Notes under the pieces: model-generated | What the model was told of the DNA's origin: nothing | Database searches by the model: none | The model's input: the letters and a program-made list of their open reading frames with translations, nothing else | DNA from: Schmidtea polychroa | Lineage: Eukaryota | Reading direction: 5' to 3' | Assembly: GCA_044892525.1 (NCBI GenBank) | Contig: CM097888.1 | Location: 57,102,001 to 57,166,000 of the forward strand | Length of the DNA stretch: 64,000 bases | Part shown: in pieces, positions 53,573 to 54,322 of the stretch | Position numbering within the stretch: the stretch's first letter is position 1 | How the letters are laid out: each line of letters begins with the position of its first letter | Translations under genes and position numbers: made by a program

Positions 53573-54322
53573 TCATTTCTCCCACTCAGTGGCGGCTAAC
53601 AGCTCTTCGAGGTCGAAAAACTCGGAGGCGTTCTCTTCCCAAGTGACGCCGGCGGCAGAGATAATTCGCCCAGTCGCTTCAGATGTGGGGACTACTGTTA
53701 CCGAAGGAACGTTGACTACATCTACGAGGTTCGTTAGGGGTATATTGGACTTGGCAACCATCCGTTCTCGTTGTTTTCTTTTTCGTTCAGCTCTAGACAT
53801 TTGCCGACGTTTCGGTTTGGATGTTGCTGTGTTGGTTGGAATCGCCTTAGACGTAGAGGCAAGCACCGGGGATACCTGACTTGTACCCATGAAAATGATA
53901 TCTGGTTGTTTGGGTGAGAGCTGGGTCTCTACGCATTCCTTGCAGGACTTTTTGGCAGGAGACGACAATTTTGACGAAATATCATGGTGCGCCGGAAAGA
54001 GTTTGTCGGCGTCTTTGATCGGGATTTTTACTATCTTTCGGGTGGTAGTTGCCTGCAGATAAACTTTATGCAGTGCTTCGGACTGCTCCTTGATCAAGCT
54101 CCTCTGGGAGCGACTTTCAGCTATCAAAGCATCTCGACAGTGCTCGCTCCGGTAGAGCTTCTTCTGGGTCTCCTTCATCCGAGCGGGACTAAACCATGTC
54201 CCTTCCAACTCGTCTATCTTCCTTTTGTAACGTCCAATCTGGGTTTGCAGATCTTTGATAATGGCGTTTTTATCCGCGCAAGAGAAGCACGGACGTAACG
54301 CGGGTTTGGTAGTTGGTATCAT
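53573..54322 (-). CDS. Unrecognised 249-aa protein (CxxC, coiled coil, second CxxC, basic NLS-like stretch, acidic-hydrophobic C-terminus), copy L
   Basis: Intact ORF, visibly much more GC-rich than the host genes. Only 6 replacements versus copy R in the first ~96 codons, against ~30 synonymous codon differences. Confidence 0.85.
   Translation of the reverse strand: MIPTTKPALRPCFSCADKNAIIKDLQTQIGRYKRKIDELEGTWFSPARMKETQKKLYRSEHCRDALIAESRSQRSLIKEQSEALHKVYLQATTTRKIVKIPIKDADKLFPAHHDISSKLSSPAKKSCKECVETQLSPKQPDIIFMGTSQVSPVLASTSKAIPTNTATSKPKRRQMSRAERKRKQRERMVAKSNIPLTNLVDVVNVPSVTVVPTSEATGRIISAAGVTWEENASEFFDLEELLAATEWEK

Follow-up and report, generated by a model that had tools for sequence, protein, structure and literature searches.

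The open reading frame (ORF) described here, which encodes 249 amino acids, is almost certainly an accessory gene located in the long terminal repeat (LTR) of a Burro-type giant Gypsy retrotransposon. It lies in a 64,000-nucleotide stretch of the Schmidtea polychroa genome (contig CM097888.1, positions 57,102,001 to 57,166,000; hereafter the window), where the initial annotation had attributed it to a mobile or viral element; that attribution stands, with the ORF residing in the LTR of a Burro-type Gypsy element. The encoded protein belongs to a new family, the position of its gene within an otherwise known element is unusual, and a Rev-like role for the product is put forward as a proposal.

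The ORF and its paralog in nested solo LTRs

The ORF and a paralog sit in two nested solo LTRs, each with intact ends and 4-bp target duplications (Table 1). Copy 2 is inserted into copy 1 at LTR position ~705 in the opposite orientation, and this 4-kb antisense insertion splits the copy 1 promoter from its own ORF. An uninterrupted LTR of the same subfamily, L087, was used as the reference for copy 1; copy 2 has lost its second donor through a short deletion relative to the LTR of element E4.

Table 1. Positions of LTR features in the window and of the second ORF found in lineage-3 LTRs.
Feature	Position	Strand	Remarks
Solo LTR copy 1, 3' part (LTR positions ~702-4240, CA end)	53010..56546	-	98.8% identical to L087 702-4219
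Solo LTR copy 1, 5' part (LTR positions 1-705, TG start)	60504..61208	-	99.1% identical to L087 1-705
Copy 1 target-site duplication, 4 bp	53006..53009	.	Partner 61209-61212
Copy 1 signals	CCAAT box 60875-60879; TATA 60847-60853; predicted donors 60798 and 60558	-	Positions conserved across LTRs
Predicted splice acceptor, copy 1	54328..54350	-	From sequence; polypyrimidine tract and AG, 5 nt before ATG
LTR-encoded ORF (copy 1)	53573..54322	-	Predicted helices 13-39 and 46-98 around EGTWFSP turn, basic helix 177-191, acidic tail 219-249
AATAAA, predicted polyadenylation signal, copy 1	53437..53442	-	From sequence; 131 nt past stop
Structured RNA element 1, copy 1	56205..56355	-	Inside predicted intron; z -5.4 sense vs -3.7 antisense; covariation
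Structured element 2, copy 1	53105..53285	-	Past AATAAA, ~100-280 nt before LTR end; double-sided changes
Solo LTR copy 2, 3,957 bp, TG...CA	56547..60503	+	97.0% identical to E4 LTR (L079-L082)
Copy 2 target duplication	56543-56546 and 60504-60507
Copy 2 promoter-like region	56876..56960	+	CCAAT 56876-56880, TATA 56902-56908, first predicted donor 56959-56960
255-aa paralog ORF (copy 2)	59235..60002	+	70% identical; acceptor AG 59228-59229; AATAAA 60094-60099
Structured RNA element 1, copy 2	57376..57525	+	Long stem, invariant apical region, second stem-loop; candidate response element
Structured element 2, copy 2	60230..60410	+	z -6.0
Second ORF of lineage-3 LTRs	L197:4170-4529; L160:811-1170; L130:3530-4027	-; +; -

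Both ORFs are intact, as first claimed (249 and 255 aa), and stops are present in all five other reading frames of the ORF. The earlier count of 30 synonymous and 6 replacement codon differences between the copies over codons 1-96 proved exact, and the dN/dS comparison proposed with it gave a dN of ~0.03 and a dS of 0.5-0.9, depending on the method. Over the first 110 codons, third positions account for 38 of the 49 nucleotide differences. The contrast drawn earlier between the GC-rich codons of the ORF and the host genes was also borne out (GC3 of 0.54, versus 0.21 in a host-like ORF at 7800-8936), and the GC3 of the element's own polyprotein is 0.37. The statement that indels are confined to a low-complexity middle has to be withdrawn: the two proteins align without internal gaps, and the copy 2 product is six residues longer at its C-terminus. 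The divergence is unevenly distributed. The first 50 codons differ at six sites, all synonymous, and 48 of the 60 nucleotides upstream of the ATG are identical, whereas synonymous sites downstream of codons 1-50 are close to saturation. Because of this pattern the two copies probably share a recombination tract, and the 30:6 count would therefore be an average of two histories.

Several other features of the window were recorded. A multi-exon host gene with UDPGP-family matches, which we take to be a UDP-N-acetylhexosamine pyrophosphorylase, spans ~37100-52000(-), with its first coding exon ~1 kb downstream of the 3' end of the copy 1 LTR and on the same strand. Exons at 29151-31063(-) presumably resemble those of an hnRNP F/H-type RRM protein; the two that were scanned gave no Pfam match at 0.01. 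There is an inverted-repeat-bounded element of ~1.5 kb at 22719-24252, a probable transposase remnant at 35414-36062(-), a CENP-B/Tc5-type transposase fragment at 594-1019(-), and a GIY-YIG endonuclease fragment, probably Penelope-like, at 62070-62417(-). A link between the LTR ORF and the GIY-YIG ORF was considered and rejected, the latter lying outside both LTRs.

The host element

Searches of the genome G000 with the ORF gave at least 150 and at least 149 scored matches among ~6,700-7,000 candidates, and among the matches listed many are same-strand pairs ~26 kb apart. A 20-nt pattern for the central motif has 512 exact matches in G000 and none for the control, and a pattern for the LTR end and primer binding site (PBS) has 618. 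The full elements have TG...CA ends, 4-bp target duplications and a PBS that presumably fits tRNA-Pro; E1, E2 and E5 are 30.5, 30.2 and 29.9 kb long, with LTRs of 3.8-4.2 kb that are 99.9% identical. By tblastn the ORF is present in both LTRs of E1, E2, E3, E4, E5 and R107, the interiors of E3 and E4 being disrupted.

In E1, E2 and E5 the LTR ORF is in sense to a gag-env-pol polyprotein of 4,615-4,617 aa. The domain order in E2 is Retrotrans_gag, zf-CCHC, Monjiviricetes_fusion, RVP, RVT_1, RT_RNaseH and rve, with env between gag and pol; ankyrin domains are also present in this polyprotein, which is flanked by RING and TRAF/MATH ORFs. No BIR or BCL2-like domains were reported among the seven ORFs or ORF halves scanned. 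The element thus resembles the planarian retrotransposon Burro/GYPSM1 in its length of ~30 kb, its multi-kb LTRs, its single polyprotein of ~4,600 aa with env between gag and pol, and its ankyrin repeats and MATH/TRAF and RING accessory domains. Accessory ORFs and domains of Burro/GYPSM1 have been described, with no ORF inside the LTR in the text portion of that report (PMC6431247). Polinton/Maverick-like ORFs (integrase-, ATPase-, capsid- and PolB-like by eye) were seen inside or beside Burro elements at L045-L046 (in E3) and L143-L144.

LTR lineages, selection and probable exchange of modules

Three LTR lineages carry homologs of the ORF, with identities down to ~25%. Among the first 30 of the 618 LTR-end/PBS loci, eight have a lineage-1 ORF, six a lineage-2 ORF (~37% identity; three of the six are frameshifted) and one an internally deleted lineage-2 ORF, while 15 match short ORF-less LTRs of 1.55-1.66 kb, one of them only partly and at 73%. 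Three short-LTR elements examined whole are 13-17 kb long with at most a gag ORF. Such non-autonomous Burro derivatives (L133-L135, L136-L138 and L147-L148) are abundant; they share the PBS, contain tandem repeats and hold no more than a gag ORF of 760 aa.

Lineage 3 consists of the 4.9-kb LTRs of a more distant Burro-type element, 67% identical in the RT region and with MATH inside the polyprotein. Its homolog is an ATG-less exon of ~150 aa with 24-27% identity. A second ORF, 120 aa long, lies upstream of it in these LTRs and has an acceptor-like site of its own, a pN/pS of 0.24 (pN<pS in 15 of 15 pairs) and a C-terminal RKRGRPRK, which we take to resemble an AT-hook; this ORF has no Pfam match above cut-off and no tblastn match in the window.

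The strong purifying selection proposed earlier from the two window copies extends across the family: pN is below pS in all pairs of the three lineages. These values refer to intact ORFs only (53 of 82 loci, after repeats and broken copies were dropped), and the copies were drawn from score-ranked lists, which biases the sample toward intact ones. For 17 lineage-1 representatives the mean pN/pS is 0.21 overall (pN<pS in 136 of 136 pairs), 0.10 over residues 1-110 and 0.07 over residues 219-248; the corresponding overall values are 0.17 for lineage 2 (36 of 36 pairs) and 0.20 for lineage 3 (21 of 21). Selection is purifying, not positive, in every block of the ORF. Changes private to single copies behave differently in the two subfamilies: the N/S rate ratio of singletons is near neutral at 0.79 in the subfamily of copy 2 (33 N and 13 S in 18 intact copies) and 0.22 in that of copy 1, subfamily A (8 copies). 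Internal stops occur in 22 of 150 ORF copies among the matches listed. The overall pattern fits selection during replication of the element and decay after insertion, and selection appears to act on the replicating element because private changes in one subfamily are near-neutral.

The LTR ORF is far more diverged between elements than the backbone. For E2 and E5 the polyproteins have a pS of 0.064 and 98% identity, whereas the LTR ORFs have a pS of ~0.9 and 65% identity. Among E2 (L036-L040), E5 (L083-L086) and R107 (L141-L144), pS is 0.6-0.9 for the LTR and leader RING ORF and only 0.06-0.09 for the polyprotein and TRAF ORF. Because of this disparity, old LTR modules have likely been placed on near-identical backbones through LTR swapping.

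The predicted protein

A profile search of 1.84 billion representative proteins yielded 11 proteins with E-values of 1e-9 to 8e-4, all aligned to residues ~25-120, and a further profile search added six rows, some matched solely via host domains in the alignment. A word-based search with the single protein gave no matches among 453 candidates, and Atlas searches gave only leads below 0.9. Most of the database homologs are fused to unrelated host-like domains (SNF, GDC-P, L21, subtilase, CRAL-TRIO, actin, DAD and PTP); such fusions would be expected if LTR exons with a strong acceptor were drawn into gene models.

In an alignment of 41 sequences W43, P46, E69, R71 and P110 are invariant, with the basic motif downstream, and the core common to all lineages and the database homologs comprises the GTW..P turn, E69, R71, P110 and the basic motif. 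This motif is rich in Arg and Lys, with 11 K/R in residues 168-190; it is found in the three lineages and in most database homologs, where it is Arg-rich. AlphaFold2 predicts the two long helices listed in Table 1 with pLDDT mostly above 90, together with the basic helix, and leaves the rest disordered (pTM 0.35). The family-wide core is thus predicted to be a helical hairpin plus a basic Arg/Lys motif. The blocks listed as conserved in the initial annotation are all present in the window proteins, although one of them, CKEC/CRDC, is not family-wide: the N-terminal Cys pair and the acidic tail are confined to lineages 1 and 2 and the middle Cys pair to lineage 1. A family-wide zinc finger was accordingly discarded: lineage 2 lacks C127/C130, and neither the lineage-3 exon nor the database homologs have the N-terminal pair.

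As had been anticipated, the ORF gave no match to a known gag/ORF1 or host family in Pfam, PDB sequence and Foldseek searches, and the element's gag is a separate ORF. The AlphaFold and Foldseek comparison suggested earlier gave no match at E<=0.001 in the viral and PDB libraries, and the best VIA match, at Z 9.2, is to generic helical hairpins. One of 14 proteins scanned, the database homolog P0004, scores against Pfam REV (PF00424) with E=0.0013 and 19.1 bits, below the cut-off of 22; the window proteins have no Pfam REV match. The best PDB sequence matches of the profile are to the Arg-rich arms of nodavirus capsids (E 0.16-0.74). Both the REV and the capsid-arm matches may be explicable by composition alone. 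No clear leucine-rich nuclear export signal was seen when the protein was compared by eye with the consensus.

The transcription-factor reading proposed for the protein is less well supported. The acidic tail is kept in lineages 1 and 2, but both the tail and the Cys motifs are absent in lineage 3. The order of the parts is not bZIP-like, the coiled coil preceding the basic motif by ~70 residues predicted to be disordered, and Pfam finds no DNA-binding domain in the protein. A nuclear regulator is nevertheless plausible because the basic motif is conserved.

Predicted gene structure and RNA elements of the LTR

Of 17 lineage-1 LTRs tried, 15 could be delimited. Most of these have a CCAAT box, a TATA box at ~355 and donor-like sites at ~410 and ~600-670, followed by the ORF at ~2,400-2,900; L093 is divergent in its 5' part. 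In 82 of 82 loci (some being the same place counted twice) the ATG is preceded at a distance of 5-10 nt by a YAG, and pyrimidines make up on average 11 of the 15 nt before this YAG. All 15 delimited LTRs have an A[AT]TAAA ~90-140 nt past the stop, which was not seen at the equivalent place in the lineage-2 copies. This layout reads as a self-contained gene, with putative promoter, one or more short exons, intron, coding exon and polyadenylation signal. Because the ORF is downstream of the LTR's TATA box, it likely lies in R or U5, not in U3, and should the genomic RNA, too, start from the TATA box at ~355, the combined length of R and U5 would be ~3.7 kb.

Two short repeats were seen near the donors. 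An inverted copy of the first ~15 nt of the LTR lies directly before the second donor (window 57130-57150 and 60560-60580), and every lineage-1 LTR has it at position ~590-650. This inverted copy may base-pair with the start of the LTR in the 3' RNA copy, or it may mark an ancestral shorter LTR end. Around the first donor, lineages 1 and 2 have two copies of a ~25-30-nt unit with a terminal AG (LTR ~385-460; window 56931-57010), whose sequence varies between subfamilies.

For runs X5 and X6, which we guess to be RNA, contigs cover the ORF and the conserved blocks but not the predicted intron, which X1 covers. Contigs of these two guessed RNA runs are also present 5' of the TATA box; most show 88-95% similarity to the references, and none has a GT-AG joint at the predicted splice sites. 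X7 and X8 gave no contigs and X9 gave one.

The most conserved parts of the LTR are two non-coding blocks, and in a folding scan of the copy 2 LTR the only two windows with z <= -2.5 are at these structured elements 1 and 2. Element 1 sits between the donors and the acceptor, inside the predicted intron. In copy 2 it has a z of -6.6 in sense and -4.5 in antisense, and the sense strand gave the better fold in every strand pair compared (7 of 7 and 4 of 4). Across 15 sequences 13 of its 48 pairs show double-sided changes, including 8 of 10 in the main helix; none of 500 shuffles reached this covariation and slid controls were far lower, with the structure derived from the same alignment and the controls ignoring relatedness. 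For element 2, double-sided changes affect 19 of the 45 predicted pairs; the comparison used 11 of 17 alignment rows, four lineage-3-like and two misoriented rows being left out. Lineages 2 and 3 and both short LTRs also have a strongly folding window at the place of element 1. LTRs that lack the ORF retain elements 1 and 2; in one short-LTR type the sequence at the element 1 position is a different one that likewise folds strongly. Between 52900 and 61400 no Rfam family matched at E<=1. The idea that a second coding ORF overlies element 1 was rejected, because indels disrupt its frame in E1 and non-autonomous copies, in which the stem nevertheless persists.

Possible functions of the LTR-encoded protein

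We tentatively favor a reading in which the ORF encodes a Rev/CERV-like protein that would bind structured LTR RNA and export or stabilize the unspliced genomic RNA. Transcription would start near LTR position 385, and a spliced, LTR-only mRNA would yield the protein first. The helical hairpin would oligomerize, the basic motif would serve in nuclear import and RNA binding, and the intronic stem-loop, present only in unspliced RNA, would be the binding site. Retroelement biology suggests that intron-bearing RNA must leave the nucleus because the LTR is copied through RNA, and the genomic RNA would thus have to retain the LTR intron; the same problem has been stated for Cer1 in the text portion of PMC10309623. 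Non-autonomous elements lacking the ORF would rely on protein supplied in trans. Combined in one module, a helical protein with a basic motif and a stem-loop in the intron would be the parts of a Rev/RRE-type switch, and a helical hairpin with an Arg/Lys motif beside covarying RNA fits an RNA-binding regulator at least as well as a transcription factor. The REV match below cut-off and the nodavirus capsid arms are weak hints of an RNA-binding arm, and both may be compositional. Against the Rev-like reading, no homology to Rev reaches the Pfam cut-off, no clear export signal was seen, and the two runs guessed to be RNA gave no joint at the predicted splice sites; the structured elements could equally be packaging, dimerization or host-NXF1 (CTE-like) signals that operate without this protein, and the constrained acidic tail of lineages 1 and 2 (pN/pS 0.07 in lineage 1) fits an activation domain.

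Extended to the whole LTR, the Rev-like reading becomes more speculative, and we regard the following as possible but doubtful. Burro LTRs would be self-contained modules with a promoter, an intron holding an RRE-like element, and an independently evolved Rev-like gene that reads this element; solo LTRs would supply the protein in trans, non-autonomous elements would parasitize it, and modules would be swapped onto near-identical backbones.

A rather unlikely alternative, in line with the initial annotation, is that the protein is a transactivator akin to Tas, Tax or Tat, with a basic helix that binds LTR promoter DNA or a nascent-RNA hairpin, a hairpin that dimerizes, and an acidic tail that activates the LTR. 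The C-terminus is acidic and hydrophobic, with eight D/E in 31 residues, is strongly constrained, keeps its pattern in lineage 2, and presumably resembles activation motifs of the VP16/p53 type. Lineage-3 LTRs add a second selected ORF ending in the AT-hook-like RKRGRPRK. A precedent is foamy-virus Tas, an early regulatory gene product that activates the LTR and internal promoters, as outlined in the text portion of PMC12789967. Against a transactivator, the acidic tail and the Cys motifs are missing in lineage 3, conservation outside the coding part of the LTR is highest in RNA structures and not in upstream DNA sites, Pfam finds no DNA-binding domain, and the basic helix is not directly followed by a zipper.

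A further and improbable reading is a nuclear or nucleolar factor for counter-defense or host manipulation that blocks piRNA/PIWI silencing or alters the state of the host cell. The divergence of the LTR module far faster than the backbone is as expected of arms-race swapping, yet selection is purifying rather than positive in every block. Such a role would liken the ORF to the apoptosis- and ubiquitin-related genes of the element, which carries RING and TRAF/MATH ORFs, and Burro is a PIWI target according to the text portion of PMC8532177; the protein, however, has no similarity to a known suppressor and no tie to a host target.

Slightly less probable again is a particle component, an extra nucleocapsid- or matrix-like protein that aids packaging or reverse transcription of a ~27-kb RNA with a very long R-U5. 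The helical hairpin and basic arm, the weak nodavirus capsid-arm matches of the basic motif, and the structured elements near the RNA 5' end and PBS are compatible with this, but the Gag already has CCHC knuckles and the fold matches are to generic hairpins (Z <= 9.2). Also against it, a separately spliced mRNA, as predicted for the LTR, is typical of the early regulators of complex retroviruses.

Domestication as a host gene at the window locus is very improbable, for although both window copies are intact and copy 1 ends ~1 kb upstream of the UDPGP-family gene on the same strand, there are hundreds of near-identical copies, the LTR ends and target duplications are intact with 97-99% identity to other insertions, the copy 1 promoter is cut off from its ORF by the 4-kb antisense insertion, and the copy 2 subfamily singletons are near neutral (0.79), though those of subfamily A are at 0.22.

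Relationship to known systems and implications

The closest comparison for the Rev-like reading is CERV of the Caenorhabditis elegans element Cer1, a Gypsy-type element; CERV is made from a spliced mRNA, has a helix-hairpin-helix, a KRKK basic NLS and a Cys-rich region, and is needed for export of unspliced Cer1 RNA (text portion of PMC10309623). The LTR ORF likewise encodes a novel protein of a Gypsy element, here with a predicted helical hairpin, a basic motif and a putatively spliced mRNA. CERV differs, in the same portion of that source, in its length of 517 aa, its exons shared with gag in the internal region, and its globular M and G domains. The whole of the gene described here is within the LTR, and no globular domain is predicted for its product; the likeness is one of description.

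HIV Rev, HTLV Rex, HERV-K Rec and MMTV Rem are small products of spliced mRNAs with a basic motif and oligomerization helices. The LTR ORF resembles them in encoding a small protein with a basic motif, whose mRNA is predicted to be spliced, and in having a structured RNA element in the same LTR; the Rem response element overlaps the MMTV 3' LTR (text portion of PMC12789967). The genes of these proteins are internal, however, and the LTR ORF has no homology to them at the Pfam cut-off and no clear export signal. In position the ORF is more like the genes for two accessory or regulatory proteins, MMTV Sag and foamy-virus Tas, which are situated in the LTR or at the 3' end. Of these, Sag is encoded in U3 and differs in being a membrane superantigen. 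Unlike either, the Burro solo LTR holds the predicted promoter, exon and polyadenylation signal together.

No description of an LTR-encoded Burro ORF or of the RNA elements was found among listed titles and abstract openings or in the text portions of PMC8532177, PMC13465017, PMC13524379 and PMC11410931; published figures or supplements may already mark the ORF. Burro1 is reported to aid planarian stem-cell survival and regeneration (as cited in the text portion of PMC13465017), and the text portions of the Burro literature do not address the export of intron-bearing RNA or the timing of genes in so large an element. A selected LTR-borne gene beside a covarying RNA element offers a direct, RNAi-testable handle on both. 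The LTR exon also likely contaminates annotations, because it appears fused to host-like domains in database gene models. Solo LTRs, usually seen as promoter relics, may here be complete protein-coding genes, and if the Rev-like reading is true, an invertebrate Gypsy element would carry, entirely in its terminal repeat, an early/late switch in the style of complex retroviruses.
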